Shown here piece after piece: positions 1 through 50,092 of a stretch of DNA of 64,000 nt (positions are counted from its first letter, which is position 1; each line of letters opens with the position of its first letter). The notes under the pieces are model-generated. The model searched no databases, was not told the DNA's origin, and saw nothing but the letters and a program-made list of their open reading frames with translations. The stretch is from NCBI RefSeq assembly GCF_006345805.1, contig NC_043000.1:78864001-78928000 (forward strand). The letters run 5' to 3'. Made by a program: the position numbers and the translations under genes. Source of the stretch: Octopus sinensis. Its lineage: Eukaryota.

Positions 1-2257
1 GAGGGCCTTTACGGACCTCCTCGACGGGCTGCTGCGCTTATCGGGGCGAGATGCGGAGGGCTGTGAAGGGCCAATCACGCCTGGGGAGGTGGTTGAGGCG
101 ATGGCGGACTGCGGCGCCGGGTTTAGATGGTCTACCCTATGAGTTATATAAGAGTATGCCAGACTTGTTCGGGCACCTACTGGCGGAGGTCTATGCGATC
201 TGGCAGCAGAACGGGTTCATACCCAGATCTGTGCGCCGGGGAGTAGTGACACTCGTCAGAAAGGACCCGAGCAAGGGGGAGTGCATTGATAATTTCAGGC
301 CCATCACTCTGCTAAAACAGAGTTGAAGATTTTGGCCAAAGTGTTATCGAAAAGATTGGCGCGTGTCGCGGATGGTCTGATCGGGGAGGCACAGACATGT
401 GCCGTTCCCGGCTGAACCATTCAGGATAATCCATCTTATGCGGGATTTAATAGTATAGAGGGGTTTAATAGTGATTCTGGCAAGGGTAGGGCACTGGTCC
501 ATTTAGACCAATCTAAAGCATTCGATAGGGTCGACCATCGCTACCTGGTATCTGCCCTGGCACAGTTCGGGCTGGGCCTTGGCTTCCTCAGGTGGATTAT
601 CCAAATTTACGACAACATCGACTCGGTAGTTCGGGTGAACGGCTTCGACAAGAAGCCGTTCAACATCAAGCGCTCGGTTCGTCAAGGGTGTCCGCTTTCC
701 CCGCTTTTGTACGTGGTGGCTCTTGAGTCATTACTGCGAAAACTGAGCGGCATCTCGAGACAGCCAGGTAGTGGAAAATCGGTGTCAGCGTACGCGGATG
801 ACATCACCATCATCGTAACAGAAATGGATCACCTAGAGAGGGTAGGCAAGGCCATAGAGGTTTACGAGACAGTGACAGGAGCAAAAGTTAATCGTGAACA
901 GTCAGTCGGCTTGCAACTCGGCACCTGGAGAGGCAAGTCGATGCCTCCTGACAGCGTCGTGGGACGTTGGACGGAGATTCCGATTAAGTTGCTAGGGGTT
1001 TGGTTCGGTCCAGACCTCCAAATAGAGAAGAATTGGGGCGAGGTATCGAGCAGGATGGATGCAGTAACCAAGACCTGGTCTTGGCGGTGGCTATCCCTGA
1101 AAGGGAGGGCGGAGGTAGCCAATGTGTTCATCGCATCGGTTATCACCTACTGCCTTTCCGTCGTTCCTTGCCCTGATTCGTGGTTGATCAAGTTGGATAG
1201 GCAGCTCTTCTACGTCTTGTGGAATGGCGGGAAACCACTTGTGAAACGCTCTACTTGCTGTCAACAACCGTTAAAGGGTGAGCTTGGGATGCCTTGGCCG
1301 ATGATGCGCAGACATGCGCTGGGGTTAAGACATCTGTGGCTTAAGACATCTGTCGCAAGGCTCCCCTGCTATTCCGTCGCTCGGGCAACGCCTGCGGTGG
1401 AGGTTCCACCACATTCTTCTATAGAGGGTTGGTAGAGGCGGAATGTGAAGATACCTTGGGGGAAACCCTAGGTCTCGACGATAATCAGCTGGCCAGTCTG
1501 TTCCGACGTACGTTCGAGCCGAAGACACTGGACAACTTCCAGAAGTCTCTGGCATGGCAATGCTACGGAGGAGCTGTACCTGTTCGGGATAAACTCGCAA
1601 GGCACGGTGGCCAAGACAGTCCGATATGTCCAAGATGCGAGCGGGATAGGGAAACCGTCCCGCACGCTATTGTTCATTGTTCGGTCGTGTCTGAGGTGTG
1701 GGTTTATGCCGAACAGCTGTTGTCAAGCACACGAAGAGTACAGCTGTCGACTGAGTCTATTACAAAAATTGACCCACCAGATTTCCTCGCGAAAGAAGGT
1801 AAGAATTGTTTTCTCGTTGTAGTAGCAATTGCGAAAGAGGTGATATGGAAGACGAGAATGAAAGGTTTACGGTCAGGCAAGTTCATCTCCGGCCCTGGTT
1901 TGATGAATTACTTCATCTTTCACCTGAAAAGGAAGATAGGGCTGGAGAAAATGCCTGACTAAGAGAGTGTACGAAGAACGATTGAAAGATGTAGCACGAA
2001 AGTTGCGAGTGGATGATACCACATAAATGTAAAACTAGACGAAACCAAAGTATCAGTGGGGAGGCGGGGCTCGTGGGGTCCGAGCTGAACCCGCTCCCAC
2101 TCCATCCGCAATGTCTTCCGGTCTGTTCCCCATTCGATTTTTTCTATTTTTGTAAATTTTAAAATTCGCCTTTTGTGTAAACTCATTCGTATATCTGACC
2201 CCACATCAGGTTGTATTGTCCCCTCTATGTTCGCCCCTTGTGGGTAATAATAAAACA
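1..2257 (+). mobile_element. Tx1/L1-clade non-LTR retrotransposon A, 3' part (RT, C-terminal zinc finger, 3' UTR); degenerate, cut by window start
   Basis: Frameshifted fragments with PGLDGLPYE, FRPITLL, RQGCPLSP, AYADD and CPRC..H...C; ends GGGTAATAATAAAACA before the target motif at 2258-2273. Confidence 0.92.
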
Positions 2258-2459: not shown

Positions 2460-2690
2460 TGAGGTATATTTGCCATCTCAATATGGCTAACCACTAAGGA
2501 TGGGTGTTACTGTAACTTGTAGCCCTAGGAGAACATCTCCTGCAGCTGGCTATAGGCACACTTTCTGTGACCTATTGGTATTTGCAAAGGGAGGTCATCC
2601 TTCCCTCGTCAACCTAAGTGATGCGCACGGACTGCAGTTTCTGGGTATTGACCCGTCATCAGCGCACGACAATCACCGGTTTTCGATGAA
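2460..2690 (-). mobile_element. 3' half of hammerhead-bearing small retroelement (retrozyme or Penelope pLTR-like) interrupted by LINEs B and C
   Basis: Contains the hammerhead; ends in a 37-nt block (2460-2496) repeated at 13185-13221; abuts (TA)n. Confidence 0.7.
2618..2676 (-). ncRNA. Type I hammerhead ribozyme
   Basis: Minus strand GUGAU-UGU-CGUGCG CUGAUGA C GGG UCAAUA CCC A GAAA C UGCA GUC^ CGUGCG-C-AUCAC: intact core, stems I and II, minimal stem III with palindromic loop; cleavage predicted at 2630/2629; C-A mismatch at the base of stem II. Confidence 0.85.
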
Positions 2691-3026
2691 TTTATCTTTA
2701 TTATGATCAAGTGATCTAACATAGAATGGGTACATTACAGGACAAAACAATTACAAAAATGCTTTGCGAGTTCGAATGAAATTATAAAAATTACAAAAAT
2801 AAAATTTTATGTAACTTGAACGAAAACTTGGCTTACTTTGCCTTGAAACGAAACCTTGGCTTACTTTTGCCTTTATCACGAGAACTTTTAGTGCGTATGT
2901 TTTTTTTTTTATTATTTCTTTATTTTAAACAGTTATGTACAGTGAAAGGGAATGGGAGGTACCAGTTTCAATTTTGAACCCGGCAGCCTATAAATCCCAG
3001 CAGCTGATTTTTCCTTTCCTCGATGA

Positions 3027-6000
3027 TTAAGCTGGGTAACTCTCACTCACCTTTCTCATCACATCCTTCCAACGTTCCATATACTCTTTCTGTGGCAGGC
3101 TCCTCTTCTCCAACCCCATCTTGCTCTTCAGATGATATCCGAAGTATTTTAACAAACCGGGGCCAGAGATAAAGGACCCTTTCACAAGACCTTTCAATCT
3201 AGTTCTAGATACACAGTCTTTCAATACTGCCACCGTACAGTAAAAACAGGCCTTACCTTCCTTTGAGAGTCCAGTTGGGGGTATCATCTTAATCATAGAC
3301 TCAGCCGACAGCTGTACTCGTCCCAGATGCGACAACACGTGTTCCACGTAACTTATCAAGCCTAACAGCTCCCGACATTGTACAAAAGCGTGTTGAACGG
3401 TTTCATCGTCCAACCCACATCTTGGACACGTCGGTGGCACTGACATTCCGTGCCTGGATAACTTCTCGCGAACAGGTAATGCATTCCTATAGCACTGCCA
3501 GGTCAGGGATTTTTGGTAATTATCCAAATACCCCGACCTGAAAGTCTTCTTAAACAGGTTGGAGAGTTGATCCTCATCGAACCCCAGAGCCCTTCCTAGG
3601 ACGTCATCATTTTTCCCTCTACCAGCCCTTTATAGAACACCGAGGTGGTATTCCCGCTGCCGGCCTTGCCCATCTTGTGGATCAGCCAGAGTGCCTGTCG
3701 GCACTCCTTCTGCCATGAAGTCAGGTTACGTCCTTTAATGAGACCGGGTGTAAATCCCTCCAGAGAGGCCGGTCGCGGGAAGAATTCCTCAGCCAGCGAA
3801 CTCCACACCTTATCATCCTCCAGGTTACACCCGAGGTGTCTCAGCCTCAACGCATGCTTGCGCATCATTAGCCAAGGCATCCCCAGTCCACCCTTTAGCG
3901 GTTCCTGGCAACACACGGAGCATCTCACAATCGGCTTTCCTCCTTTCCACAAAAAGCGAAAAAGGAGTCGTTCCAACTTGTTTAACCACGAATCGGGGCA
4001 AGGCACGACGGTCAGGCGGTAGGTGACGACAGAGGCTATAAACATCTGTGCCACCTCCGCCCTCCCTTTCAAGGAAAGATGCCTTCCGGACCACTTCCGT
4101 GCTATGGCATCCACCTTGCTCGTTACCTCGCTCCAATTCTTCTCCGTCTGGGAGTCTGGACCAAACCAAACTCCGAGCAATTTAACAGGACCATCCGTCC
4201 AGTGTCCAACAACACTGGACGGTATCGGCTTGTTCCTCCAGGTGCCGAGGCGCAAACCGATGGACTTGTGCCTGTTAACTTTTGCCCCTGCTACCACTTC
4301 GTATCCATGGAGAGCACCTGCTACCCGAGGTAGCTGTGTTCCGTTGGACACGATGAGGGTGACGTCATCCGCATAGGCAGAAACAGGCTTACCGCATCCG
4401 ATTTCATTAGGGTTGCCTCCTAACTTCTCCAGCTTCCGCAGCAATGGCTCAAGAGCCAAAACATACAGGAGCGGGGACAAGGGGCACCCTTGACGAACTG
4501 AACGCTTGATCGAAAACGGCTCCGTTGGGTAACCGTTTATCTGGACTGTGGACTTGATGCCGTTGTACATAGCTGAGATCCACCCGCCATAGCTAGGGAC
4601 CAGCTCAGCCGCTTCGAGGACCGCCGCCAAGTACCGATGGTCTACCCTATCAAACGCTTTACTTTGGTCTAAATGGACTAATGCCCCTCCTTTGCCGTCT
4701 AATTTCCCGACCCTATCTATAGTGTAGCGAAGAATGTGAAGATTATCCTGGATCGACCTGCCTGGGATTGCACATGTCTGTGCCTTCCCGACAAGTTTCT
4801 CCACGACAGCCGTCAGCCTTTTTGCTAACACCTTGGCCAAAATCTTAAACTCTACATTAAGTAGAGTTATGGGCCTATAATTACTAATGCTGTCCCCCTT
4901 GCTTTCTGGACAAGCGTCACAACTCCCCGACTCACAGAGCTGGGAATCCTCCCATTCTTTTGCCAGTTGCATACAACACTAAAATTCACAGGGCAGACCA
5001 TCCAACCCCGGCGACTTTTCCCCGGCGCACTCGGCCATAACCCCTCTTACCTCCGCGGGAGAGATCGATCCTTCACAGCACTCCGCCTCACCTGCCGAGA
5101 ATCGAGGCCCACCAGCTAGGAAGTCCTTTAAGGTCTCCCCACGCTCGAGTGGACCACCGCCCCCAAACAGCCGTGCGAAATGCTGGTGAAGGACCTTCTG
5201 CATCTCCTCCTGTTCATAGATCTTGCGGTCCTGCTCGTCAGTTAAGGACATAATACAGGACTTTTTGCCCTTCTGACTCTCCTCACAACGGGCCCATCCG
5301 GCAACGTTAATACCTTCTCGTTTGCCTGCACGTAACTTAGCTGACTCTACACCCCTCGTGCTTGGCGTTGAGATGATGGTACAATACCGCTCTCGCTGCC
5401 AACACTCCGGATGCACAGCCAGATTCCATAGCCTCGTCTAAGTTCTTAACTAATTTGCCCTCTATTCTAGTCCTATCTAAACTTAGCTACTTGCTAAATC
5501 TATTGGACTCCAAACGGATGGCTCTTTTGAGGGCGAGCCACCATCTATTATTAATGATGGTGCCACATAATGCCCTCTGTACTAATTCCTTAATCCGGGT
5601 ACGGAAAGCTTCACAAGTCAAAATAGACTTGTTCATTTTCCAGTACCCGGGACCTTGTCTATGGCATTTATCTACCTGTACCTCACACGTCACAAGTTTG
5701 TGATCCGTGTAAGGCACAACAGAGAATTGTGGACAGCTAACACTATTCCTATCTCGTTCCTTAACAAATACTCTATCTATGTACGATCTGCGTGAGCCGT
5801 CGATATTACTCCACGTCCACTGTGGAACGTTCGGCTCATCCAGTCGAAAACGGTCTACTAGATTAAAACTCGCTAGTAGAGCCTTGAGGCCAGGATTCCC
5901 CTTCCTATCGCTCGAGCCTACACCATCCACCCGCGCATCGAGAATGGTGTTGAAATCCCCTACCAAGACTACCGTTTTCGACGTCACTAGAAAGTGCTCC

Positions 6001-6368
6001 AGTTCCCGAAAAAAACCGGTCTGCCCACGCCCATTAGGAGCGTAGACAGCCACCAACCTGAAGGACTGCTTACTCACGTGCGTCACATCTAGGACAACCA
6101 GCCTACCTTCTGGGTCCAGAAAGACAGTACTTACCTGTAAGTCCAAGTTCTTCCTGAAAAGAATTGCCACGCCTGCACCTCCCTCCCGGCTAGGAGAAAT
6201 AAATTTCTCGTAACCATTGAGAAGTGGTGAGAACGCTTGGGGTCCTTTCATCTTGGACTCGGTAACAATAGCTACATCGATTCTATGTGAAATGAGGTCG
6301 TCTCGAAAACAAGCCTGTTTCCATTTCGATTCCATTCCACGCATATTTATACAACCTAACTTAATCAT
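3027..6368 (-). pseudogene. LINE B ORF2 (APE endonuclease, RT, zinc finger), frameshifted
   Basis: GCINMRG, VYAPN, GDFN, SYIDR, TDH; DQSKAFD, QGCPLSP, YADD; CPRC; split over four ORFs. Confidence 0.92.
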
Positions 6369-6392
6369 CGAAAAAAAAAGATAATTATTTAC

Positions 6393-7851
6393 TCACGGTT
6401 GCGAGAGGGAGCCTGACAGATTCCTTCTGCCTGTCTCCCACACACTCGCCGTTGCTGCTGGGCGTTTCACCGGCGTTTCCACCGGGCTCTGGGTTGGTGT
6501 GGCTGCCGGGCTGACGTATAATTTCCCAGTTGTCACCTCCTGGGTGACATCCTTAATGAAGCCGGCTTTTACGAGGTCTTGTAAGTTTTTTCCTTTCCAT
6601 CCTTCTTCGCCGACACTTGCATATCGCCACTCCGCTTCCTTCTCGGTCACTTTGTAGCACCTGATCTGCGTACTTGCTTGCACAAATTTTACTGCTCTCT
6701 CGTTCCTTGTGGTGTATGCTATAATTTTTTCATGTGGGGTTTGTTAAAGTGCTGGCCTATAAATGTAATACCGCCGGGGTGGGATTGGAGAATATTTTTA
6801 ATTTGTTCGTCTGCGTTGTTTTTTTTGTTACGGGTGGGGAGTCAGGGGTGATGGATTTTTTCCTTTTGTTCGACACGTTCGTGAATTCCATCTCTTCTTC
6901 TATATTTGTTTTTGTTGTATTAATTTCCTCCTCCTTTCCTTTCTCATTTTGCATTTCCTTCTTGTCTTCCTCCTTTTTGGAGTTCGACCTGTTTTTTTTT
7001 CCTCTTTGCTTTCGCCAGTCGTTACTTTGTTCACCACTTTGCTGCTTTCTGCGTTCTTCACAGCGTTTTGTGGGGGGGGGGTGCGTTGCCCGTATTATTT
7101 TTCTTTGTGCAAACGTAGCGAACGTGGCCCTTTTGTCCGCACTTAAAACATCTGGGCCTGCATCCTTCCACCGAAACTCGTATGGAGTGCCCCTCCCCCA
7201 CGAAGACTCTGTCTGGTAGGCTTTCCAGCGTCGCATTTTCCTCCTGGATAATCATCTCCAGCTGCTGGTCTCTCCAGTGTTTTGCAATTTTCCTCTTCAT
7301 ACTCAAAATTGTCAATTTTGATTCAACATCAAAAATACCGCTGTTGCCGCCCACATCACGTCGTAGCCCCTTGGTATATCTTCTAGGGTCACTTTTGCTG
7401 TTCTGCACCCTAAATATAAGGGTAGCAGTATTATATTCTCGTTTTTCAACGTTTGCGTCGAAATTTGCCTTGCTTCTTCCGCCGTCTCAAAGCGCCCTCC
7501 ACTGTAGCGCTTCTTGCACATCGGTTGACATGACGAACTTTACTCCATATTGGTGCCATACACTTTTCGACCATTTCGTTTTTTACGTCGGTCATATTGT
7601 ACACCTTGTAGGTGACCATTTTTTCCCTTATTGCCTGTAAAGTTTCAGGGGGCGGTACCAATCGTGTTTCTTCACTTTTTTGCAGAAGCGGCGGTCTGAA
7701 CTTGAATAGTCATTGACACCTCCATTTCTTCCACTTCGCCACCTACGGCTTCTGAAAAACTGGGTTTTGCCTGTGTTTCCTTTTGTTTAACAGTTGTTAT
7801 ACCTTCTCCCATCTCGGGAAAGTCTTTTTTTGAACTTAAGTCTAATTCCAT
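6393..7851 (-). pseudogene. LINE B ORF1 (zinc-knuckle RNA-binding protein), frameshifted
   Basis: RPRCFKCGQKGHVRYVC; collinear with 40655-42141. Confidence 0.85.
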
Positions 7852-8364
7852 ATTAGACAACACAAACTTGTCACAAATGACAAGAGAATTTTTTTCAAAA
7901 ATAACCTATACAGGTTAAGAGTTCACACAAAAAAAACACACAGAAAATGTCTACCCCGAAGCGCGAAAATTACTGGGTCAAAAACAGTTCAACAATTATA
8001 TTACGTGTAACACAACAAAGTAGACAAACGGAAACGAACTCACACAACGATTTGCAGCAACAGAAAAATATTTGATATACTCCGAGGAAAAATTTAAAAA
8101 ACACCGGTTTTCGATTAATTCTTTATTACGATTATAAAATCAGTACATAGAAGAACAATACAGGACATACATACAAAACAGTTAAGTGGTTCGTTTTAAA
8201 ATTTCCACAATATATGGATTATTCATTATACAAAAAACTGTATTTAAATTGTCCTTTGCAATGACTAATATAACATTACATTAGATTGAAATCTTACCGA
8301 TATATTTTAAACCCCGGCAACCTATTGGGCCCCGCAGCTTTCCTTTCCTCTTCTCCATCCATAG

Positions 8365-11300
8365 TTAAACTGGGTTTCTGACACCCACCTTTTTCGCCAC
8401 TTCCTTCCATCTTTTTTCATACACACCTCGTGGTAAGGTCTTCTTTTCCAGCCCTATTTTGCTCTTCAGATGATATCTGAAGTAAGTGAGCAAGCCGGGG
8501 CCTGAGACAAAGAATCCTATTGCGACTCCTTCCATTCTTGTACGCCACATGCATTCTTTTACTACTGCAACCGTGCAGTGAAAACATGCCTCACCTTCCT
8601 TCGAGAGTCCAGTTGGCGGTATCATCTTAATCATAGACTCAGCCGACAGCTGTACTCGTCCCAGATACGATAACAAGTGTTCTGCGTAACTTATCAAGTC
8701 TGACAACTGCCGACAGTGTACAAAAGCGTGCTGGACGGTTTCATCTTCCAACCCGCATCTTGGACACGTCGGTGACACTGAAATTCCGTGCCGCGATAAC
8801 TTCTCGCGAACAGGTAAAGCATTCCTATAACACTGCCAGGCCAGGGATCTTTGGTAATTATCCAAATACCCCGTCCTGAAAGTCTTTTTAAACAGGTTGG
8901 TAAGCTGGTCCTCGTCAAACCCAATAGCCCCTCCAAGAACGACAACGTTCTTTGCCTCTACCAGCCTGCTATAAAATACCGAGGTGGTATTTCCGCAGTC
9001 GGCCTTGCCCGCCTTGTGGATCAGCGTGAGTGCCTGTTTGCACTCCTTTTGCCATAAAGTCAGATTCCGTCTTTTGATGCAACCGGATTTAAAATTCACT
9101 AAGGAAGCTGGTCTCGAGAAAAATTCCCCTGCCAGCGGACTCCACATCTTATCACCCTCCAAGTGGTGCCAGAGATGCTTCAGCCTCAACGCATATCTGC
9201 GCATCATCAATCAAGGCATTCCTAACCCACCCTTTAACGGTTCCTGGCAGCAAACGGAGCGCCTCACAAGTGGCTTTCCTCCCTTCCACAAAAAGCGGAA
9301 AAGGATTCACGCCAACTTGCTAAGCCATGAATCGGGGCAAGGGACAACGGTCAGGCGGTAAGTGATTACAGATGCAATGAACATCTGTACCACCTCCGCC
9401 CTTCCTTTCAAGGACAGAAACTTTCCGGACCAGGTCCGTACTATGGCCTCCACCTTTCCCATCACCTCACTCCAATTCCTCTCCGTTTGGGAGTCTGGCC
9501 CCAACCACACTCCTAGCAACTTAACAGGACCATTTTTCCAGTGTCCCACGGCACTGGACGATATCGACTTGCTCCTCCAGGTGCCGAGGCGTAAGCCAAT
9601 CGACTTGTCCTTGTTAACTTTTGCTCCTGCCACCTCTGATAGCATCTTCTACACAAGGTAGCTGAGCCACATTGGACACGATGATGGTGACGTCATCCGC
9701 ATAAGCAGAAACCGTCCTCCCGCCTCCGATCTCATCCGGGTTACTTCCCAGCCTCTCCAACTTTCGCAGCAATGGCTCGAGAGCCAACACGTACAAAAGT
9801 GGTGACAAGGGGCACCCTTGACGAACTGAACATTCGATCGAAAACGGTTCCGTCAGGTAACCGTTTATCTGGACGGTGGACTTGATGCCGCTATACATAG
9901 CGGAGATCCACCCACGAAATTCAGGGCCCAGCCCAGCCTTTCGAGGCCCGTCGCCAGGTACTTATGGTCTACCCAATCGAACGCTTTACTTTGGTCTAAA
10001 TGCCGGTTAATTTACCCACCCTATCTAAGGTGTAGCGTATAAGGTGAAGATTGTCCTGGATCGACCGACCTGGAATTGCACATGTCTGTGCTTTCCCTAC
10101 AAGTTTCTCCACGACAGTCGTCAACCTTTTTGCCAACACCTTGGCCAAAATCTTAAACTCTACATTAAGTAGAGTTATGGGTCTGTAATTACTAATGTTA
10201 TCCCCCTTGCTCGGGTCTTTCTGGATTAGCGTCACCACTCCCCGGCTTACAGAAGTGGGAATTCTCCCGTTCTGCTGCCAGTTCGCGTAGACGCCTGCCA
10301 GTATTCCCCCGAACAAGTCCGGCATACTTTGATAAAACTCGTAGGGCAGACCATCCAACCCCGGCGACTTCTCCCCGGCGCATCCGGCCAGTACCCCCTC
10401 TATCTCCACGGGAGTGATCGCTCCTTCACAGCACTCCACCTCACGCCCCGAGAGCCGCGGTCCGCCGGCTAGGAAGTCCTTTAAGGCTCTCCCCCGCTCC
10501 AGCGACCCCCCCCCCCCGAACATGCGGGCGAAATGCTGGTGAAGAAGCTTTTGCATCTCCTCCTGTCCATAGATCTTGTGTCCCTGTTCGTCAGTTAAAG
10601 ACTTGATTGAAGCTTTGTTACCTCTCTGACTCTCCACTCGACAGGCCCATCTTCAACGTTAATACCTTCTCGTTTCCCTGCGCGTAGCTTAGCTCTAACT
10701 CTGCAACCTTCGTGTTTGGAGTTAAGGTGACGGTACAATACCGTCCTTGCCGCCATCACTCCGGATGCAGAGCCAGATTCCATTGCCTCGTTTAGATTCT
10801 TAACTAAATCGTCCTCTATCCTAGACCTATCTAACCTTAGCTGATTGCTAAATCTAATGGACTCTGAACGAATGGCTCTTTTGAGGGAGTCCCACCATCT
10901 ATTGTTAATGATGGTGCCACATAATGCCCTCTGTACTAACACCTTAATCCGGGTACGGAAGTCTTCACAATTCAAAATAGACTTGTTCAGCTTCCAGTAC
11001 CCGGGTTCCTGTCTATGGCATTTATCTAATTGCACCCTACAAGTCACAAATTTGTGATCCGTGTAAGGCACAATGTGAAACTGTGGACAACTAAACGTAT
11101 CCTTATCTCTTTTCCTAACGAATATCCTATCTATATACGATCTGCGTTAGCCGTAGTTGTTACTCCACGTCCACTGTGGAACGCTCGGCTCATCCAGTCG
11201 ATAACGGTCTACTAGATTAAAGCTCTCTAGTAGACCCTTGAGGCTAGGGTTCCCCTTCCTATTGGTTGAGCCAACACTGTCGACGCGCGCTTCGAGGACA

Positions 11301-11715
11301 GTGTTAAGGTCCCCTACTAAGACTACCGTTTTCGACGTCACTAAAAAGTGCTCCAGATTCCGAGAAAACTCCGACTGCCTACCCTCATTCGGAGCGTAGA
11401 CAGCTACCAACCTGAAGGACTGTTTACTTACGTGGGTCACATCCAGAACGACCAGCCTGCCTTCTGGGTCCAGAAAGACAGTACTTACCTGCAAGTCCAA
11501 GCTCTTCCTGATAAGGACTGCCACGCCCCTTCCTCCTCCTCGGCTAGGAGAAATAAATTTCTCGAAACCATTTAGATGAACGCTTGGGTCCCGTTCATCT
11601 TGGACTCGGTTACAATAGCTACGTCCACTCCGTGTGTCGTGAGGTCGTTCAGGAGACAAATTTGTTTCCATTTCGACCGCATTCTACGCACATTCACACA
11701 ACCCAGCTTTGCCAT
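8365..11715 (-). pseudogene. LINE C ORF2 (APE-RT), frameshifted
   Basis: VYAPNE, YTDH, SPGLDGLPYEFY, QGCPLSP, AYADD, CPRC. Confidence 0.9.
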
Positions 11716-11743
11716 TGTCGGAGAGAGAGAGAGAAAAAAAAAC

Positions 11744-12890
11744 TTACGGTTGGGACAGGGAGCATGACAGTTTAAATCTGCATGCTTCCCCTTCTTCCTC
11801 CCTTGTGGTCGTAGCTGCAGGGCTCTTAACCGGCGTTGCCATCGGGCTCTGGGTAGGTGTGGTTGCCGGGGTTATAGTAAGTTTGCCCTCCAGTATTTCG
11901 TTAGTTACGTCTCTGATAAGGTTATTTTAAAAATGTTCTTGGAGTGTTTTTTCTTCCACTCGTCTTCCTTATTTTTGCAAAACGAATGGTCGACTTCGTG
12001 TCTGCAGACTTACTCAATAATTTCAGTTTTGAAAATTTTAAATACTTAAACACTCTATCGTTCCTCTCGTCGAATGCTACACTCTTTTCATTTTTTTAAA
12101 TCAATTTTTCCAATCTTGTTTTATGGGGGGGGCTTGGCGAACTGTGTTCCAATGAATACAGTGCCGTGGGGGTAGGGCTGGGGAATTTGTTTTGTATGTA
12201 TCTCTGCGGTGTTTGCTGATTTTTTCTTTGTTTGGAGAGGAGAGTCCAGGGTATTTTCTTTTTTTCTTTTGCGTGTCACCTGTGTAAATTCCATTTGTTC
12301 GATTCCCTTCCTTGTCGCAGTCTTGGGGTCTTTTTCCGCCTTTTCTTTTTCTGTGTTTGAAGCACTTTGAGGAGGGGGGCTTCGCTGTTTTTCTTTTTTT
12401 TTATGCAGTTCGAGCGGACGTGACCTTTTTCACCACATTTGAAACACCTAGGTCTGCGCCCCTCCACTGACACTCTCATTGTATTTCCCTCCTCAATAAA
12501 TACCCTATCGGATAAGTTTTCTAGCACATTATTTTCTGCTTGAACGAGGAGTTCGAGCGCTTGTCCCTTCCAGTTTACCTCCTCTTTCCTTTTCATCTGC
12601 AGAATTGAGACTTTCTGCTCTACGTCGTGCAGAACCGCCGCTGCTACCCACATTATATCATATCCTCTTGGTATGTCTTCCACATATAGTTTCGCAGTTC
12701 TTTTGCCCATATAGGTAGGTAGTAACATGATGTCCTCACTTTTTAAGGTCATCGATGAAATCTCTCTTGCCACATCAGCCGAGTCGAAATGTACTTCAAC
12801 GGTAGCGCTGCGGGCACCTCGACCGACGTAGCGAATTTTGCTCCACACCGGGGACAAGCACTTCTCTGCTATTTCGTTCTTCACGTCCAT
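11744..12890 (-). pseudogene. LINE C ORF1, lacking the N-terminal region present in B
   Basis: RPRCFKCGEKGHVRSNC; MDVKNEIAEKCLSPVWSK aligns to the internal MTDVKNEMVEKCMAPIWSK of B. Confidence 0.83.
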
Positions 12891-13044
12891 TATTTTTTTC
12901 TCTTTGTTACTGTCACACAACGGACAACTGTTCAATTCACGAGCAAACACAAACAACGACGAACAAAAAACGAACTCACTCAACAAAATAGGCAGCTAAC
13001 TTCTCAATACACAGATGAAAGAGGGGTCCCTAGACGAGTCAAAA

Positions 13045-13471
13045 CACCGGTTTTCGATGAAAGGATTCCCAATGCAATTATTTATACCCTTTTTCCAGTA
13101 ACTTTTCGTCACTGATCTTGAAAAAGTGTATACAAGCAATAATAAATCTCTGAACGAGGTATAAACAGTAACTGTACAACAATGTGAGGTATATTTGCCA
13201 TCTGAATATGGCTAACCACTAATTTTCAATATATTGCTGGCGGGGAGGTGAGTCGACGCTATCCCTAGCGGTCGAGCGTCCATCACCGACGAGACAAAGG
13301 AAGGTCAAAATCATGTGATCCGGCAGTCTTGGCGTTGCAATTCGTGGGGGTTCAACTCCAAGCTAGCAAAATAAAACCTATAGAAGAGTTTCTCTTATGG
13401 TATCTACCAGATTAAAGTTTGTTCTAACATAACTTCCGCGTATAAGTGGGAGTAAATATTACCTCTATAGC

Positions 13472-13474
<3 letters not shown>
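13045..13474 (-). mobile_element. 5' half of the hammerhead-bearing host element
   Basis: Carries the 37-nt repeat (13185-13221), TATA box and target motif; flanked by (TA)n; mirror at 35031-35450. Confidence 0.65.
13055..13086 (-). promoter_or_regulatory. TATA box plus initiator-like TCA overlapping the LINE target site
   Basis: TATAAATA begins 28 nt upstream of the A of TCATCG; same spacing at 35409 and 35437. Confidence 0.55.
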
Positions 13475-13540
<66 letters not shown>

Positions 13541-13581
13541 GTGGTGTGTGTGTGTTGTGTATGTGTGTGTTGTGTGTGTGT

Positions 13582-13619
<38 letters not shown>

Positions 13620-14005
13620 ATAGAAAGAGAGAGAGAGAGATGGAGAGAGCTAAATAATAGATAGATTTGTGTTTATATAGTTTTTGCCGAAGATCCTCTA
13701 AGTTTGATATTATTAGTTACACTCTAAATTATCGCTCTTTGTTTGAATTGTTTGAATTCTTTGGGCGTCCTCTAATACGTTTCAAATCGTATTTCGCCTG
13801 TATCTTTTGACTAGTTTCTTTTTTTTTATTGTGAGACTGCTTCTGCTTTGTTTCTCTTTTCGTTGCGCCCGACAAGTTGTACATAATTGCTTTATCCCCT
13901 ACTTCCACACTTGACCTTTTCTCTCCTCTCTCAATATCTCTAATGCATGCTTTTTAATCGTTTCTATCTGCCCTTTTACATATATGTATATACATGTATA
14001 CACAA

Positions 14006-14036
<31 letters not shown>

Positions 14037-15365
14037 TGTATGTATGTATGTATGTATGTATATTTGTATGTGTGTCATTATTCAGTTTTATTTCAAGATG
14101 TCTTGCCAATAGAGGAAGATTCGGCTTCTAAACTATAGCCAATTTCAACATCAACAACAGGATATTTTGTTTGCATGTATGTATGTATGTACGTATGTAT
14201 GTATGTATGTATGTATGTATGTATGTATGTATGTATGTATGTATGTATGCATGTATGTATGTATATATGTATGTATGTATGTATAAATGTATACGTACAG
14301 ATTTGTATATTTTGTTTCATGTATGTCATATACTTGCATATACTTGCATATGTAGACATACTCATATATATTTAAATGATAAACTTCTGGAAAGTTTTAC
14401 AGATTTTTAAATTCCTGATGGATTGGATCTGTAATCTTCGAATCAGCTATCTCCTTCCTGGTTTTGTGAAGCCTAATTTCTCAAGATTGTTATTTGGGAA
14501 ATGTCTTACATATCCCAGTACCCCAATAATTACAGGTATAAATATGAACTTGTAATCTGGATAGAGTAACTGCAGATTTCTCAATAGTTCAGCGTAGGAA
14601 TTCTCTTTCTCACTGATATTCAGCTTTTTGCTAACATCCCCTGGGCAGCTGGTTTCTACAACTGTACACAGTTTCACTTCTCTATTCCAAATTAGTATAT
14701 CAAGTTCATTGTGTTCACATTAAATTGAGATTTTCACTGGGACATTCCAACAGTACGCCTTATGAGTGGCTATGGCTTCCACCATACTGTAGGTTCTTGC
14801 TTCTTTGACTCCAGGCTCATCCTTTCGACGGATACGTTATAGAGCGTCCTAGCTACAATATCATGTCTCATCGGTAGATAACACCGTGATGACATTTCCG
14901 GACACCTGCTTATTTTGTGGCTGATATCTTCGGTGTTAACTCCGCAAAGTCTGCATCGATTGTCGCATTTTAATTTTAATGCTTTTCCTGCTTCTCCGTC
15001 CCTTTTATGCATCAGGTATTTCGTTGATATTTCCTGTTCTTGGATTGCAAACGCATACCCTTCACAGCGGGAAGTAGTAATCCGGTTGTTGGTTCATGTT
15101 AGACTGTTTGGATGATGATCAATGTTACTATACTCTAGGAGCTTTCTACTAACGTATCCATGCATAGTCTTCTGCTCATATATGCTCATCCTTTTATCTG
15201 TTAATACAATGCGGTAGAGTCGAGAGATTTCTTTGGGCAGGTATTTAAGGTTATGTATGTATGTATGTATGTATGTATGTATGTATGTATGTATGTATGT
15301 ATGTATGTATGTATGTATGTATGTATGTATGTATGTATGTATGTATGTATGTATGTATGTATGTA
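13475..15365. repeat. Microsatellite cluster: (TA)n, (TG)n, (GA)n and several (TATG)n tracts
   Basis: Seen directly at ~13475-13640, 14007-14060, 14175-14283 and 15252-15364. Confidence 0.9.
14400..15200 (-). mobile_element. 3' fragment of an R4/Dong-like RLE-type non-LTR retrotransposon
   Basis: MHGY, GYAFAIQEQEI, CRLCG..EDISH..SRCP, RHD, DILIW..KLCTVVETSCP..EKENSYAEL (zinc knuckle plus restriction-like nuclease). Confidence 0.75.
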
Positions 15366-15985
15366 CGAATGTATGTCTATGTATTTATACACACACACTA
15401 CACGTGTGAGCAGGTAAGTGCAAAAACAAGGTTGAGAAAATAATACTTTAAGACCAAAAGAATAATAAAATTTTATATTGAGGCTGCAAAAATTTTTACC
15501 AAGTTGTTCAATGTAACCGTTTGTCAGACAGTCGTAAGTATTCGGAATAAGAAGATAACTTGAAGTATCTGTAGTGTGCTGAATGTGAGATGCCATATCA
15601 TGTCGATATGATGTAGCCCACTACCGAATGTAGCGTATAGATGTAACGCTTAAAGGTTTTCGCGTCGGAGTACCCACTGAACATTGAAGAATCAACACCA
15701 AGAAGAAATATTATTTACATATATATATATGCGTTTGCCCGACAGGTAGTTGAAGGGACAGTTGCTCGTTTTGACAAACAACAAGCTGGTGGATTTGGTT
15801 TCAAATTTCAGGCAAGGCGATGCAAGGTCCCAACATATTTTAAAATAATGGAACATTGAAATGAGTTGAATAAACGATTTTAAAAATTAATGGGATAGTA
15901 AAAATTAAGGGCGAATATGTTCCACACAGAAAATAACAATAATAAAGGGTAAGATAAATAAATATATAATATGTATATATAAAAA

Positions 15986-17354
15986 CTAGCAGTATCGCCC
16001 GGCGTTGCTCGGGTTTGTAAGGGAAATAACTATAAAGCATTTTTAGAGTGTTATAGCCAAAAAATAGCATAAAAATGCATTAAAAATGGAAAAAAATTAT
16101 AGTAAATTTTTTTAAATCGTTGACTCATCGTAGACATTTTTAGAGAGTTACTTCCCTTATATAATAGCAAAAAAATGCATTAAAATGGAAAAAAATGATG
16201 GTAAATTATTTTTAAAATTGTAGACTCATCGTAGACGCGCGCTAATACCCAGAAGGGCTCCATATGAATCACGACTATAAGATACCCGGCTTTGGTTAAA
16301 CTGCACCGCAAAATGTGGGAGTAGTGAGGAATCTAAATCGTAGGAGACAGACACACAACTTCACTTTTATATATAAAGATTTGTGCAACAACTAAAACAT
16401 TCGGTTGTGCAAATTGTTTGCACAGGAAACCTACCCTGTGTGGCGGCTTTTGCCGTTTTTGTGTCGTTGTTCTAAAAGAACGCTGGTCTCCTTGACAACG
16501 CTTTACGACGTTGATTTCCTTACACTCCCTTCCCCACGGCTTCACGAGGGAGGGAAGTAGGGAGAAGCAACACAGGTGCAGGTGTGAGCATGGACGCCAA
16601 CTCCGCCGCCATCGAGACACGAAAAAATATGCGTTAAAATGGAAAAAAATTATGGTAAATTATTTTTAAAATCGTAGACTAATCGTAGACGCGCGCTAAT
16701 ACTCAGAAGGGCTCGATATGAATCACGACTATAAGGTACCCGAATTTGGTTAAACTGCACCGCAAAATGTGGGAGTAGTTAGGAATCTAAATCGTAGGAG
16801 ACAGACACTCACACAACTTCACTTTTATATATATAGACTAGCAGTATCGGCCGGCGTTTCTCGGGTTTGTAAGGGAAATAACTATATAAGCATTTTTAGA
16901 GAGTTACTTCCCTTATAGATGCCAATTCGGGCTTTTTTAGCCATTTATGTTTTGGTGTCTTTAAGCCATGAAGTCGTTGTTCTAAAAGAACGCTGGTCTC
17001 CTTGAAAACGCTTTACGACGTTGATTTCCTTACACTCCCTTCCGCACGGCTTCACGAGCGAGGGAAGAAGGGGGAGAAGCAAACACAGGTGCAGGTGTTT
17101 GAGCGTGGACGCCAACTCCGCCGTCATCGACACACGAAAAATTATGCATTAAAATGGAGTAAAAAATGATGTTAAATTATTTTTAAAATCGTAGACTCAT
17201 CGTAGACGCGCGCTAATAGCCAGACGGGCTCGATATTAATCACGACTATAAGATACCCGAATTTGGTTAAACTGCACCGCAAAATGTGGGAGGAGTTAGG
17301 AATCTAAATCGAAGGGGACATACACTCACACAACTAGAGTTTTATATATATAGA
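15986..17354 (-). mobile_element. Tandem/compound non-autonomous Helitrons (three 5' ends, two 3' ends)
   Basis: 5' TC-TATATA-type ends at 17354, 16837 and 16379; hairpin plus CTAG at 16838 and 15986. Confidence 0.8.
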
Positions 17355-25593: not shown

Positions 25594-25652
<59 letters not shown>

Positions 25653-25685
25653 TAATCAAAATAAAAACATGATGCCAAGGGTTCA

Positions 25686-25763
25686 GCGGTACATATGTTT
25701 CGGGCCTTTATTAGACGGATTTATAACAATGCATAATGTGCGTCTGTGGCCTTCTTCAGCCGC
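25686..25763 (-). ncRNA. Type I hammerhead ribozyme, extended stem II (inverted copy)
   Basis: Reverse complement of 29004-29081. Confidence 0.78.
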
Positions 25764-28700
25764 GCACAACTACTTCTTCAAGGACATATATTACATCAAA
25801 AATTCTTGGTTGGGGATGCAAATCCTCTCATTCGCGTACGACGTAATGCGGCAACAGCATAAAAATGAAGCGTCCATCTCGTTCTTCTCTCAATGTAGAA
25901 TGCGGAAGTTTGGATGTTGAAGTAATATAAATAAATAAATAAATAAATAAATATATACATATAAAAATATATAAATATATAAATACAGACAGACGTGAAG
26001 GAACCTGGTAATAAGAGCAAATAGAGATAAAGATGGAGGGGCGAGAATTCAGGACGAAGGATAAAAGATATATAAAAATTGTAAGTATATAAAAATATAA
26101 AAATGTAGAGTATAAAGATATAAAGAGATATAAAAAATATTAAAAAATATAAATGAATATAAAGGTATAAAGTTATAAAAATAAAATTAAAAAGTGTAAA
26201 AGAATATAAGGATAAGGGATATATAGTAGTTACGGACCAAACATGGTGGTCAGGAAAATGACAAATTCTGGTTGTAGAAGTCTTGGGTGTCATAAATCAA
26301 TCGGGGCGTCTGGGGACCTAGTGTATTGTAAATTAGAGTTGTTGAGCAGCTTATCTAGTTCTTCGTAACGTATTAAATGGTCATCGCGTACATACGCACC
26401 CGCATGGATACATACACCCATATATACGCGCACATATACGCACGCATACGCAGCTACACGCATACAAGCACACATACGTACTCACGTGTAAACATATACA
26501 TATGGAAAAGGCGCATGTAGTTGGGTACACGAACCGACGCGCACGCGTACGTACATACATACACTCTCATGCGTTCATATAGGCACACTCGCACTTACAC
26601 GCATTCACAAGACGAAGTGAATCCCTATGCGTGTGGGCAGGAATATGTATACACATACACACGCGCGCACATACGCATATATATATACACACAACAGAAT
26701 ATGTATATATATACACGAACAATATACATGTACATATATATATACACACACCCACATACGCATATACATATACACACACACATATGCATACATATATATG
26801 CACATATATACATATGCATATATACACATGTGCATACACACAAATATACACACGCCCATACCCGCACACGCACATATATATATATGTGTGCATACATGCA
26901 CACCCACGTGTGCATACACACACGCATACATACATACACACGGACCCATGCACACGTATCCACACGCACACACACACACATCTGTGTGTCCATACGTGCG
27001 TGTGCGCATACACTTAGATACGCATACACAGACACCCACACATATAGGTATAGATATAAGATATTAAGAGATGTATAAAAAATGTATATAAGAAATCTAC
27101 AAAAGCATGTAAAAAAATTATTAAAGAAGTATAACGGGGGGGGGTACACATCTAGACACAGATATTTACTCATACATACGCATACACATGTATACATATA
27201 CATACATACACAGACACACGTATAATCATAAAGCGGATACATAGATAAGTAAATAAGGAAAAAGCTAAAAATAGACCTATATAGAGATATAAAGTGATAA
27301 AATAGGGGTAAAAATAGGTGTAAGAATAAGGGTAAGAATAAGAATTAGAGATAAAAATAAGAAATAAAATATAAAAATTAGAAATAAAATATAAAATTAT
27401 AAAAACTATAAAAATTAAAATAAAGAATGAAAATAAAAATAAGTATAAAAGTAAAGTAAAATAAAATAGGATAAAATAAAATAAAAATGTAGTCGGGTAA
27501 GGCTTAACATGAGATGAAGGTAAAAATAAAAGGTAGTTGAAAATGTAAAGTTAAAGGTGTGTGCTAAAGGTGACCACGTAGGGGCGGGCGGGGGAAACTG
27601 AAAATTGGAAGGGTGGGACGCGGGGACACGTGTGCGTGGGTCCGTTTTTTTACATCCGTTTGCAGATTTGTTATATACATTTTTTATACATCTCTTAATA
27701 TCTTATATCTATACCTATATGTGTGGGTGTCTGTGTATGCGTATCTAAGTGTATGCGCACACGCACGTATGGACACACAGATGTGTGTGTGTGTGCGTGT
27801 GGATACGTGTGCATGGGTCCGTGTGTATGTATGTATGCGTGTATGTATGCACACGTGGGTGTGCATGTATGCACACATATATATATGTGCGTGTGCGGGT
27901 ATGGGCGTGTGTATATTTGTGTGTATGCACATGTGTATATTATGCATATGTATATATGTGCATATATATGTATGCACATGTGTGTGTGTATATGTATATG
28001 CGTATGTGGGTGTGTGTATATATATATATATGTACATGTATATTGTCCGTGTATATATATACATATTCTGTTGTGTGTATATATATATGCGTATGTGCGC
28101 GCGTGTGTATGTGTATACATATTCCTGCCCACACGCATAGGGATTCACTTCGTCTTGTGAATGCGTGTAAGTGCGAGTGTGCCTATATGAACGCATGAGA
28201 GTGTATGTACGTACGCGTGCGCGTCGGTTCGTGTACCCAACTACATGCGCCTTTTCCATATATATCTGTATATGTTTACACGTGAGTACGTATGTATGCT
28301 TGTATGCGTGTAGCTGCGTATGCGTGCGTATATGTGCGCGTATATATGGGTGTATGTATCCATGCGGGTGTGTATGTACACGATGACCATTTAATACGTT
28401 ACGAAGAACTAGATAAGCTGCTCAACAACTCTAATTTACAATACACTAGGTCCCCAGACGCCCCGATTGATTTATGACACCCAAGACTTCTACAACCAGA
28501 ATTTGTCATTTTCCTGACCACCATGTTTGGTCCGTAACTACTATATATCCCTTATCCTTATATTCTTTTACACTTTTTAATTTTATTTTTATAACTTTAT
28601 ACCTTTATATTCATTTATATTTTTTAATATTTTTTATATCTCTTTATATCTTTATACTCTACATTTTTATATTTTTATATACTTACAATTTTTATATATC

Positions 28701-29003
28701 TTTTATCCTTCGTCCTGAATTCTCGCCCCTCCATCTTTATCTCTATTTGCTCTTATTACCAGGTTCCTTCACGTCTGTCTGTATTTATATATTTATATAT
28801 TTTTATATGTATATATTTATTTATTTATTTATTTATTTATATTACTTCAACATCCAAACTTCCTCATTCTACATTGAGAGAAGAACGAGATGGACGCTTC
28901 ATTTTTATGCTGTTGCCGCATTACGTCGTACGCGAATGAGAGGATTTGCATCCCCAACCAAGAATTTTTGATGTAATACATGTCCTTGAAGAAGTAGTTG
29001 TGC

Positions 29004-29081
29004 GCGGCTGAAGAAGGCCACAGACGCACATTATGCATTGTTATAAATCCGTCTAATAAAGGCCCGAAACATATGTACCGC
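29004..29081 (+). ncRNA. Type I hammerhead ribozyme, extended stem II
   Basis: GCGG CUGAAGA A GGCC..AGACG..CGUCU..GGCC C GAAA C AUAU GUA^ CCGC; cleavage predicted after 29077. Confidence 0.78.
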
Positions 29082-29111
29082 TGAACCCTTGGCATCATGT
29101 TTTTATTTTGA

Positions 29112-29182
<71 letters not shown>

Positions 29183-31670: not shown

Positions 31671-32576
31671 TCTATATATATAATAGTGAAGTTGTGTGAG
31701 TGTCTGTCTCCTACGATTTAGATTCCTAACTACTCCCACATTTTGCGGTGCAGTTTAACCAAATTCGGGTACCTTATAGTCGTGATTCATATCGAGCCCT
31801 TCTGAGTATTAGCGCGCGTCTACGATGAGTCTACGATTTTAAAAATAATTTACCATAATTTTTTCCATTTTAACGCATATTTTTTCGTGTGTCGATGGCG
31901 GCGGATTTGGCGTCCATGCTCACACCTGCACCTGTGTTGCTTCTCCCCCTTCTTCCCTCCCTCGTGAAGCCGTGGGGAAGGGAGTGTAAGGAAATCAACG
32001 TCGTAAAGCGTTGTCAAGGAGACCAGCGTTCTTTTAGAACAACGACTTCATGGCTTGAAGTCGCCAAAACAGAAATCGCTAAAAAAGCTGAAACAGATCC
32101 ACAAAAACGGCAAAAACCGCCACACAGGGTAGGTTTCCTGTGCAAACAATTTGCACAACCGAATGTTTTAGTTGTTGCACAAATCTTTATATATAAAAGT
32201 GAAGTTGTGTGTCTGTCTCCTACGATTTAGATTCCTAACTACTCCCACATTTTGCGGTGCAGTTTAACCAAAACCGGGTATCTTATAGTCGTGATTCATA
32301 TCGAGCCCTTCTGGGTATTAGCGCGCGTCTACAATGAGTCTACAATTTTAAAAATAATTTACCATCATTTTTTTCCATTTTAATACATTTTTTTGCTATT
32401 ATATAAGGGAAGTAACTCTCTAAAAATGTCTACGATGAGTCAACGATTTAAAAAAATTTACTATAATTTTTTCCATTTTTAATGCATTTTTTTGCTATTT
32501 TTTGGCTATAACTCTCTAAAAATGCTTTATAGTTATTTCCCTTACAAACCCGAGCAACGCCGGGCGATACTGCTAG
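31671..32576 (+). mobile_element. Compound non-autonomous Helitron (mirror of 15986-16837)
   Basis: A|TCTATATATA start; CCCGAGCAACGCCGGG hairpin and CTAG|T end. Confidence 0.8.
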
Positions 32577-33314
32577 TTTTTATATATACATATTATATAT
32601 TTATTTATCTTACCCTTTATTATTGTTATTTTCTGTGTGGAACATATTCGCCCTTAATTTTTACTCACCCATTAAGTTTTAAAATTGTTTATTCAACTCA
32701 TTTCAATTTTCCATTATTTTAAAATATGTTGGGACCTTGCATCGCCTTGCCTGAAATTTGAAACCAAATCCACCAGCTTGTTGTTTGTCAAAACGAGCTA
32801 CTGTCCTTTCAACTACCTGTCGGGCAAACGAATATATATATATGTAAATAATATTTCTTTTTGGTGTTGATTCTTCAATGTTCAGTGGGTACTCCGACGC
32901 GAAAGCCTTTAAGCGTTACATCTATACGCTACATTCGGTAGTGGGCTACATCATATCGACATGATATGGCATCTCACATTCAGCTCACTACAGATACTTC
33001 AAGTTATCTTCTTATTCCGAATACTTACGACTGTCTGACAAACGGTTACATTGAACAACTTATTAAAAATTTTTGCAGCCTCAATATAAAATTTTATTCT
33101 TCTTTTGGTCTTAAAGTATTATTTTCTCAACCTTGTTTTTGCACTTACCTGCTCACACGTGTAGTGTGTGTGTATAAATACATAGACATACATTCGTACA
33201 TACATACATACATACATACATACATACATACATACATACATACATACATACATACATACATAACCTTAAATACCTGCCCAAAGAAATCTCTCGACACTAC
33301 CGCATTGTATTAAC

Positions 33315-34110
33315 AGATAAAAGAATGAGCATATATGAGCAGAAGACTATGCATGGATACGTTAGTAGAAAGCTCCTAGATGATAGTAACATTGATCATC
33401 ATCCAAACAGTCTAACATGAACCAACAACCGGATTACTACTTCCCGCTTTGAAGGGTATGCGTTTGCAATCCAAGAACAGGAAATATCAACGAAATACCT
33501 GATGCATAAAAGGGACAGAGAAGCAGGAAAAGCATTAAAATTAAAATGCGACAATCGATGCAGACTTTGTGGAGTTAACACCGAAGATATCAGCCACAAA
33601 ATAAGCAGGTGTCCGGAAATGTCATCACGGTGTTATCTACCGATGAGACATGATGTTGTAGCTAGGACGCCCTATAACGTATCCGTCGAAAGGATGAGCC
33701 TGGAGTCAAAGAAGCAAGAACCTACAGTATGGTGGAAGCCATAGCCACTCATAAGGCGTACTGTTGGAATGTCCCAGTGAAAATCTCAATTTAATGTGAA
33801 CACAATGGACTTGATATACTAATTTGGAATAGAGAAGTGAAACTGTGTACAGTTGTAGAAACCAGCTGCCCAGGAGATGTTAGCAAAAGGCTGAATATCA
33901 GTGAGAAAGAGAATTCCTACGCTGAACTATTGAGATATCTGCAGTTACTCTATCCAGATTACAAGTTCATATTTATACCTGTAATTATTGGGGTACTGGG
34001 ATATGTAAGACATTTCCCAAATAACAATCTTGAGAAATTAGGCTTCACAAATCCAGGAAGGAGATAGCTGATTCGAAGATTACAGATCCAATCCATCAGG
34101 AGTTAAAAAA
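33315..34110 (+). mobile_element. R4/Dong-like RLE LINE 3' fragment (mirror copy)
   Basis: Mirror of 14400-15200. Confidence 0.75.
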
Positions 34111-34511
34111 TCTGTAAAACTTTCCAGAAGTTTATCATTTAAATATATATGAGTATGTCTACATATGAAAGTATATGCAAGTATATGACATACATGAAAC
34201 AAAATATACAAATCTGTACGTATACATTTATACATACATACATACATACATATACATACATACATGCATACATACATACATACATACATACATACATACA
34301 TACATACATACATACATACATACATACAAACAAAATATCCTGTTGTTGATGTTGAAATTGGCTATAGTTTAGAAGCCGAATCTTCCTCTATTGGCAAGAC
34401 ATCTTGAAATAAAACTGAATAATGACACACATACAAATATACATACATACATACATACATACATACATACATACATACATACATACATACATACATACAT
34501 ACATACAAAAA

Positions 34512-34542
<31 letters not shown>

Positions 34543-34928
34543 TTGTGAATACATGTATATACATATATGTAAAAGGGCAGATAGAAACGATTAAAAAGCA
34601 TGCATTAGAGATATTGAGAGAGGAGAGAAAAGGTCAAGTGTGGAAGTAGGGGATAAAGCAATTATGTACAACTTGTCGGGCGCAACGAAAAGAGAAACAA
34701 AGCAGAAGCAGTCTCACAATAAAAAAAAAGAAACTAGTCAAAAGATACAAGCGAAATACGATTTGAAATGTATTAGAGGACGCCCAAAGAATTCAAACAA
34801 TTCAAACAAAGGGCGATAATTTAAAGTGTAAATAATAATATGAAACTTAGAGGATCTTCGGCAAAAACTATATAAACACATATCTATCTATTATTTAGCT
34901 CTCTCCATCTCTCTCTCTCTCTTTCTAT

Positions 34929-35011
<83 letters not shown>

Positions 35012-35030
35012 CATATATATATATATATAT

Positions 35031-40389: not shown

Positions 40390-40403
40390 ATCGAAAACCG
40401 GTG

Positions 40404-48533: not shown

Positions 48534-48541
48534 GACTTACC

Positions 48542-49803: not shown

Positions 49804-50092
49804 CACCGAAAATGGCTTAACAAGCCTTTCAATTGGCTTTCACAAGCCTTCAGAAATTCTGGCTTCGCAAGCCTTTTGTGTAGATTTTTAAATGTGTTCC
49901 ACGCTAAATGTTCCACAATAATTCCGCCCCGGGGGGGGGGGATGAAATACGTAGCCTTCGCGTGAAGGCTAATGACAGTCTTATACAGAATACACTATAT
50001 ATCAATCAAAGTAACAGTAATTAAATTAACAAACCGGTATTAACAAAGTAGCAGCAAATGACAAAACAGACTGGCGTATAACAGACTGGAAT

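Follow-up and report, generated by a model that had tools for sequence, protein, structure and literature searches.

We found that a 64,000-nt stretch of the Octopus sinensis genome (NCBI RefSeq assembly GCF_006345805.1, contig NC_043000.1, positions 78,864,001 to 78,928,000; hereafter the window) carries two long interspersed nuclear elements (LINEs) of different families, B and C, inserted one behind the other in a small dispersed repeat with a hammerhead ribozyme motif. Sequence comparisons make it quite probable that B and C are Tx1-like LINEs that insert at the predicted transcription start of this hammerhead retroelement, or retrozyme, and that are likely transcribed from its U1/U2-type promoter. 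Searches across the 2.7-Gb genome confirmed a real, strongly site-specific system whose specificity holds genome-wide. The target belongs to the host repeat, is duplicated over 14-17 nt and is re-created by each insertion, so that elements stack.

The genome searches used LINE ends alone, with flanks excluded, and the best 30 B and best 30 C matches were read at each end (for the 3' ends, from 239 and 279 candidates, 40 of each scored, three rows being the window copies or their mirror). Among these 60 best 3' ends, 55 lie at the site in the first host family (47 directly and 8 via a stack), 2 in a second repeat family, 1 at position +1 of a U2 gene and 2 elsewhere. B contributed 22 direct host sites, 6 stacked targets, the U2 case and 1 end elsewhere; C contributed 25 direct sites, 2 stacked targets, both second-family cases and 1 end elsewhere. 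At the 5' side, all 60 best matches adjoin a copy of the target, which is preceded by host sequence in 51 cases and stacked in 9. Where both ends of a copy could be paired (n = 38; one misparsed and one unparsed row were read by hand), 26 copies carry identical 14-mers at their two sides (six variants in all), 5 have 14-mers one transition apart and 7 differ otherwise. Because local variants are duplicated on both sides, the motif is a target duplication and not a LINE terminus. B usually duplicates 3-4 additional target nucleotides before the ATCG and C usually none; a duplication is likewise present at a 5'-truncated C copy in the second family.

Strict site patterns (promoter element, target and either host continuation or a LINE-type T run) gave lower bounds of at least 891 empty sites, at least 58 filled sites and at least 13 stacked junctions genome-wide, compared with 0, 0 and 1 for reversed controls. 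The initial annotation, made from the window sequence alone, had proposed site-specific insertion and had named three observations that would count against it: random flanks at other B and C copies, a lack of uninterrupted host copies, and a motif that belongs to the LINE termini. All three were looked at and came out in its favor, since the flanks are not random, the host unit restored by removing the LINEs exists as an uninterrupted multicopy repeat, and the motif is host sequence found far more often empty than filled, with variant-matched duplications.

In the window, the minus strand holds the exact 14-mer at 2674-2687, 8102-8115 and 13045-13058, and the plus strand has it at 35437 and 40390; these five matches compare with a chance mean of 0.40 when up to 2 mismatches are allowed. 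The minus-strand junctions are exact, as initially described. The plus-strand "mirrors" fared differently: positions 31671-44701 are an inverted duplicate of 3802-16837 at 95.9% identity (window self-comparison), so the plus-strand motifs are not separate events and the window records two insertions rather than four. Positions 13223-13474 lie outside the host unit. The features, in order along the minus strand, are as follows.

13059-13222, minus strand: 5' (promoter-side) half of the host retrozyme unit, matching the upstream part of uninterrupted copies
13105-13120, minus strand: element resembling the U1/U2 proximal sequence element (PSE-like), with its ATCAGT core at -58 relative to the predicted start
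13079-13086, minus strand: TATAAATA at -28, part of the sequence that is AT-rich but differs in its letters among host subfamilies
13045-13061, minus strand: target, 5' copy (TTC plus 14 nt), with the predicted transcription start at 13058
8116-13044, minus strand: LINE family C copy, 4929 nt (domain and end reading)
8102-8115, minus strand: target, middle copy (14 nt), between C and B
2691-8101, minus strand: LINE family B copy, 5411 nt, both ends present
2674-2690, minus strand: target, 3' copy (17 nt)
2617-2677, minus strand: putative type I hammerhead motif (34-copy alignment and pair counts)
2461-2673, minus strand: 3' half of the host unit, up to a (TA)n tract
35273-44701, plus strand: inverted segmental duplicate of the stack, without the B end and the hammerhead (self-comparison)

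About 200 kb from the window, identical flanks enclose a paralogue of this host copy (L292) in which B comes first and C second, opposite to the order in the window. The LINE copies of the paralogue resemble those of the window no more closely than other copies do, and it may represent either repeated insertion or a collapsed triple stack.

The host unit is abundant and has the characteristics of a non-LTR retrozyme (one lacking long terminal repeats): a short, non-coding, dispersed unit with a type I hammerhead, present in tandem or solo. The 14-mer has 704 exact matches in the genome, compared with 20 for a reversed control, and the first 30 loci comprised 25 uninterrupted host copies, 4 junctions of the LINE lineage and 1 unrelated sequence. 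Spacing within a dimer gives a unit of about 358 nt; solo copies span about 1.4 units, dimers and 5' inversions occur, and most copies sit within (TA)n tracts. The starts of copies reach as far as about 300 nt upstream of +1, yet most ends fall within +220 to +236 or +272 to +300, just before the next promoter element, a pattern that fits reverse transcription around a circular template. In one copy (L025), the sequence that follows a (TA)n tract begins precisely with the predicted +1. One frame of the unit seemed, by eye, weakly similar to a Penelope C-terminus. A Penelope-like frame beside one locus (L188) was considered as a partner and rejected, as it has a different 3' end and Pfam returned no usable match; no autonomous Penelope partner was found, and no genome-wide partner search was made. 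The second repeat family (L183, L184, L252) is weakly similar to the first, with a hammerhead-like motif seen by eye only; it has an ATCAGT core at about -58 (L184, L252), and insertions occur at the same register as in the first family.

The putative hammerhead is identified by its core motif and by covariation across copies. Its core lies at 2662-2656 and the GAAA at 2641-2638, with a predicted cut between 2630 and 2629; stem III has two pairs and a palindromic loop, and stem I takes in the last GTG of the target duplication, as the initial annotation had read it. In an alignment of 34 copies, 94.2% of cells pair, a value reached by 0 of 500 shuffles and compared with 27-51% for slid controls; the copies were chosen by a core-shaped pattern, and related copies can beat shuffles without structure. 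Position 3-8 varies among these copies as CG (15), UG (10) and UA (9), and the palindromic loop III is kept in 52 of 63 distinct variants under six different spellings. Rfam returned only microsatellite noise and no hammerhead match, for both the whole window and 2560-2720, and single-sequence folding of the region was uninformative (z-scores of -1.5 and 0.0). The palindromic loop III and the U3-A8 core variant resemble hammerheads described in passages of PMC4209133, where metazoan type I hammerheads with such features act as dimers and such a stem III cuts poorly as a monomer. The octopus motif likewise looks dimer-dependent by prediction, and most host copies have a single hammerhead.

The promoter of the host unit is likely of the small nuclear RNA (snRNA) type, specifically that of U1 and U2, as judged from a shared upstream element. 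The initial annotation had singled out TATAAATA; its position 28 nt before the motif (13086-13079) stands, but it is not conserved among host subfamilies, and the shared element is instead a U1/U2-like sequence at about -58. Of 20 U1 genes, 18 have the core ATCAGT at -57 to -59; 23 of 30 U2 hits have it at -57 to -61, as do 20 of the 30 14-mer loci at -56 to -60. A proximal sequence element (PSE) matrix built from 19 U1/U2 upstream sites has its best host matches at -58 (10.6 bits) and -60 (14.6 bits), while only about 9 in 100,000 window positions reach 10 bits; at the 6 U6 loci scored with this matrix, no U1/U2-type PSE was found. This places a proximal element about 60 nt upstream of the predicted start, the distance also given for vertebrate snRNA genes in passages of PMC4494074. 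We take the A of ATCG as the predicted start because of this spacing and of the carried leader described below; it is the same base as that of the initiator-like TCA in the initial annotation. Both LINEs open with a run of at least 4 T, which makes RNA polymerase II (Pol II) the likely polymerase. A TATA-plus-PSE Pol III promoter was considered and rejected, since the element matches U1/U2 rather than U6 and both LINEs open with T runs.

B and C are LINEs with an apurinic endonuclease (APE), a reverse transcriptase (RT) and a zinc finger, and are 80% identical across open reading frame 2 (ORF2). They show a Tx1-type architecture, in which ORF2 has an N-terminal APE, an RT and a C-terminal zinc finger and ORF1 a zinc knuckle (Pfam domains Exo_endo_phos, RVT_1, zf-RVT and zf-CCHC), and they share the Tx1-type trait of a fixed multicopy target with a target-site duplication. 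Both window copies are decayed: the APE-RT-zinc-finger frame is broken in B and disrupted by stops and frameshifts in C, which also has a deletion near the ORF1 start. Both end in AATAAA, followed in C by 6 nt without poly(A). The RT scored 222 bits against a protein labelled "Transposon TX1" and about 125 bits against human L1 ORF2p, in different databases; its nearest matches are unnamed, the nearest named homologue is from the octopod Argonauta, and a protein atlas gave only generic RT clusters.

A sister family, A, is about 66-70% identical to B and C, and 0 of its 25 ends lie at the retrozyme host. Its copies (window 1-2257 and 45000-50100; L201-L225) have a 15-nt duplication and other recurring targets, none in the retrozyme host, though some of their shared flanks may be duplicated composites. 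The endonuclease hairpin loops were considered as the cause of the differing targets and rejected, as they are nearly identical in A, B and C. We also detected ORF1-only elements of about 1.6 kb with a LINE-type 3' tail (L188, positions 6651-8240; L249; L250; L182/L251; L186/L252). Their protein is akin to the ORF1 regions of A, B and C (tblastx), and they occupy the same site in the retrozyme host, the second family and U2. They resemble HAL1-type non-autonomous elements. One further element (L156/L032) combines a C 5' end with a B 3' end 5.15 kb apart and is likely a recombinant.

The sequence evidence for promoter borrowing comes from a B copy at the start of a U2 gene within a U2 cluster. 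There, U2 nucleotides 1-14 (one mismatch) are followed by the 14-nt retrozyme leader from +1 and then by B; since this copy carries the first 14 nt of the retrozyme into a different target, its template RNA likely started at the retrozyme +1. Promoter borrowing as initially annotated thus gains a donor leader and loses TATAAATA as its promoter feature. A leader variant with C at position 12 was seen at 7 distinct 5' junctions of B, C and the ORF1-only element, two of them likely mutual duplicates; among the loci retrieved, no 3' junction and no empty site has it. Other mismatched paired ends fit the donor-leader reading as well.

We propose that the APE endonuclease would read a loose ATCR-N4-YYG pattern, together with a context that we take to be the promoter region, and would nick 0-4 nt before +1 and again at +14. 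The LINE RNA would begin with the first 14 nt of the host, and base pairing between this leader and the 14-nt overhang of the next target would give a precise 5' junction; at a differing target, such as U2, the leader would remain as additional sequence. The role of the host hammerhead is likely in the cycle of the retrozyme itself, and the LINE would not need it.

Several observations weigh against insertion at, and transcription from, the retrozyme start by Tx1-like elements. Just one insertion shows a donor leader clearly. The 60 copies were those that matched the window copies best, which leaves older copies under-sampled, and 2 of the 60 3' ends are off target (L045, L084). The second family fits the PSE only in its 6-nt core (matrix score -0.1), and two filled sites (L126, L133) have no PSE at the normal distance. 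Contigs from three runs guessed to be RNA cover host and LINE roughly according to copy number and cannot show starts; host bins are deepest in these contigs, about in proportion to an unlabelled run, and one contig joins an empty site, none of which was used as evidence of expression. Membership of B and C in the Tx1 clade is likely, being based on similarity rather than on a reference tree.

In favor of sequence as the guide to the site, the targets have ATCR-N4-YYG in common. We favor a loose endonuclease preference acting within promoter context, and regard as possible, though the less likely course, a tethering in which contact between a LINE protein and the snRNA-type promoter complex (SNAPc, Pol II) leads to cutting at +1, the sequence being of lesser weight. 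Such tethering would explain why three kinds of target with differing sequence all have an ATCAGT core about 58 nt upstream, and why U2 starts are occupied at a rate similar to that of host starts (2 of 30 examined versus 58 of 949). A 13-nt consensus alone would be expected by chance about 2,700 times by our arithmetic, more often than the roughly 950 host sites, and is too common to account for 58 of 60 ends lying at these targets. Insertion order is readable, from duplication length, in 2 of the 13 pattern-matched stacks, both C-then-B, and in each the later element took the promoter-side copy. PSE-less sites make up 5 of 25 empty but 2 of 51 filled sites (hand count, p = 0.035), a small count from non-independent sites, and the two that are filled themselves speak against tethering. 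So do the U1 genes, where 0 of 20 examined carry an insertion despite the common element, and one B subfamily found almost only at targets that start with ATCGC, which points to sequence preference. A broader version is similarly tentative: the LINE lineage might home on snRNA-type Pol II starts in general, through tethering to the promoter complex and with the host leader on its own RNA as guide. Retrozymes with U1/U2-type promoters would then be abundant, harmless landing pads that absorb insertions otherwise bound for U2 genes, and ORF1-only elements would form a third tier at the same site.

The initial annotation had further suggested that read-through LINE RNA is cut by the host hammerhead about 60 nt past the LINE end, and its spacing was right, as the predicted cut lies 61 nt beyond the end of B. 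We consider it doubtful that this cut serves the LINE by leaving a host tail that pairs with the nicked target. The geometry fits, and the 3' junctions are precise and without poly(A), as some read-through pairing would allow; for R2Ol, passages of PMC6530143 report that pairing of read-through RNA with the target raises efficiency. Against this, 0 of 61 LINE 3' junctions have host sequence ending at the cut, and copies at U2 and in the second family have no family-1 tail, absences that are not decisive because a paired tail would stay uncopied. Host lengths downstream of the LINEs cluster at about 230 and 280-300 nt, as they do at the 30 other motif sites, and the nucleotides before ATCG follow the local target rather than a donor. 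Both LINEs terminate in AATAAA, and the stem III architecture is of the kind reported in passages of PMC4209133 as poor at monomer cutting, in a repeat where most copies have one hammerhead.

It is very improbable that one or a few LINE-filled host copies instead multiplied as composite units, whether through segmental duplication or through the mobilizer of the host: duplicated stacks do exist (the window mirror, L125/L128 and the paralogue 200 kb away), but this origin is largely refuted by the occurrence of the same LINE family across many host subfamilies, each time between two copies of the local variant, and is further opposed by the shared register of 5'-truncated copies, U2 and second-family sites and by downstream host lengths equal to those at other motif sites.

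Three other features of the window were observed. An inverted repeat at 25601-29167 has 1.5-kb arms of 98% identity, flanking TA-rich repeats. On the plus strand, 61714-63582 holds a 622-aa open frame with repeated Pacifastin/VWC-type domains. At 14400-15250, and at its mirror near 34000, there are broken remains that look by eye like those of a non-LTR element with a restriction-like endonuclease.

Ribozyme retroelements are a new target class for sequence-specific LINEs. The system also provides genomic evidence on the transcription of a target-specific Tx1-like element, a question left open for related elements by Kojima 2015. Three natural targets of differing sequence and the same promoter spacing offer a direct test of whether an APE-type LINE locates its site through the DNA sequence, through RNA homology or through a promoter complex. 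Inserting as it does into a repeat that is dispensable, 14 nt below the promoter of a small RNA, such an element is also a candidate for targeted gene insertion.

The closest known systems are target-specific members of the Tx1 clade, whose targets, according to passages of PMC4494074, include DNA transposons, LTR elements, satellites, microsatellites and snRNA genes. With transposons already among the known targets of this clade, one parasite exploiting another is not new in kind. Like Tx1L in Tx1D, Tx1-Mar in Mariner-N4, Keno in U2 and Kibi/Koshi in microsatellites, B and C are APE-RT LINEs with a fixed multicopy target; unlike them, they target a hammerhead retrozyme, at its predicted start. 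For SINEU, transcription from a flanking element was proposed (passages of PMC4494074), and Keno and Utopia have one U2 site in common (passages of PMC4640811). U2 accounts for only 1 of the 60 B and C 3' ends, at +1, rather than being the main target as for Keno. The Keno/Utopia site is internal to U2, in contrast to the B/C insertion at +1. In the passages available from the retrozyme literature there is no LINE that targets retrozymes, and the portions of the open literature covered mention no LINE that targets a retrozyme or an snRNA-type start; Repbase, supplements and most subscription papers lay outside this search, and a prior note is possible. The main text of an octopus repeat annotation mentions Tx1 once and ribozymes or targets never (PMC13282606).

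The host, for its part, resembles metazoan non-LTR retrozymes in that its units are short, occur in tandem or solo, and contain a type I hammerhead; mussel retrozymes have units of 350-390 bp in the same arrangement (passages of PMC7229834), and a Penelope (pLTR) origin has been proposed for retrozymes (passages of bioRxiv 10.64898/2026.07.22.740005). Our comparisons suggest the presence of a U1/U2-type promoter in an invertebrate retrozyme. Newt satellite 2, a hammerhead repeat, is likewise reported to be driven by an snRNA-type Pol II promoter (cited in passages of PMC2220036). That repeat is a tandem satellite, whereas the octopus host is a dispersed element and a LINE target.

Outside the Tx1 clade, B and C are site-specific like R1 and R2 of 28S rDNA, which rely on co-transcription with their target (passages of PMC4494074); target homology in R2Ol RNA helps junction formation (passages of PMC6530143). 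Because the LINE sits 14 nt below the predicted start, B and C would need no 5' processing, unlike R2. R2 uses a restriction-like endonuclease and its own 5' ribozyme. Ty3 and the Dictyostelium element TRE5-A insert at a fixed distance from small-RNA gene promoters via Pol III factors. B and C resemble these two in their fixed promoter distance, with tethering as only a rival reading for the octopus elements.

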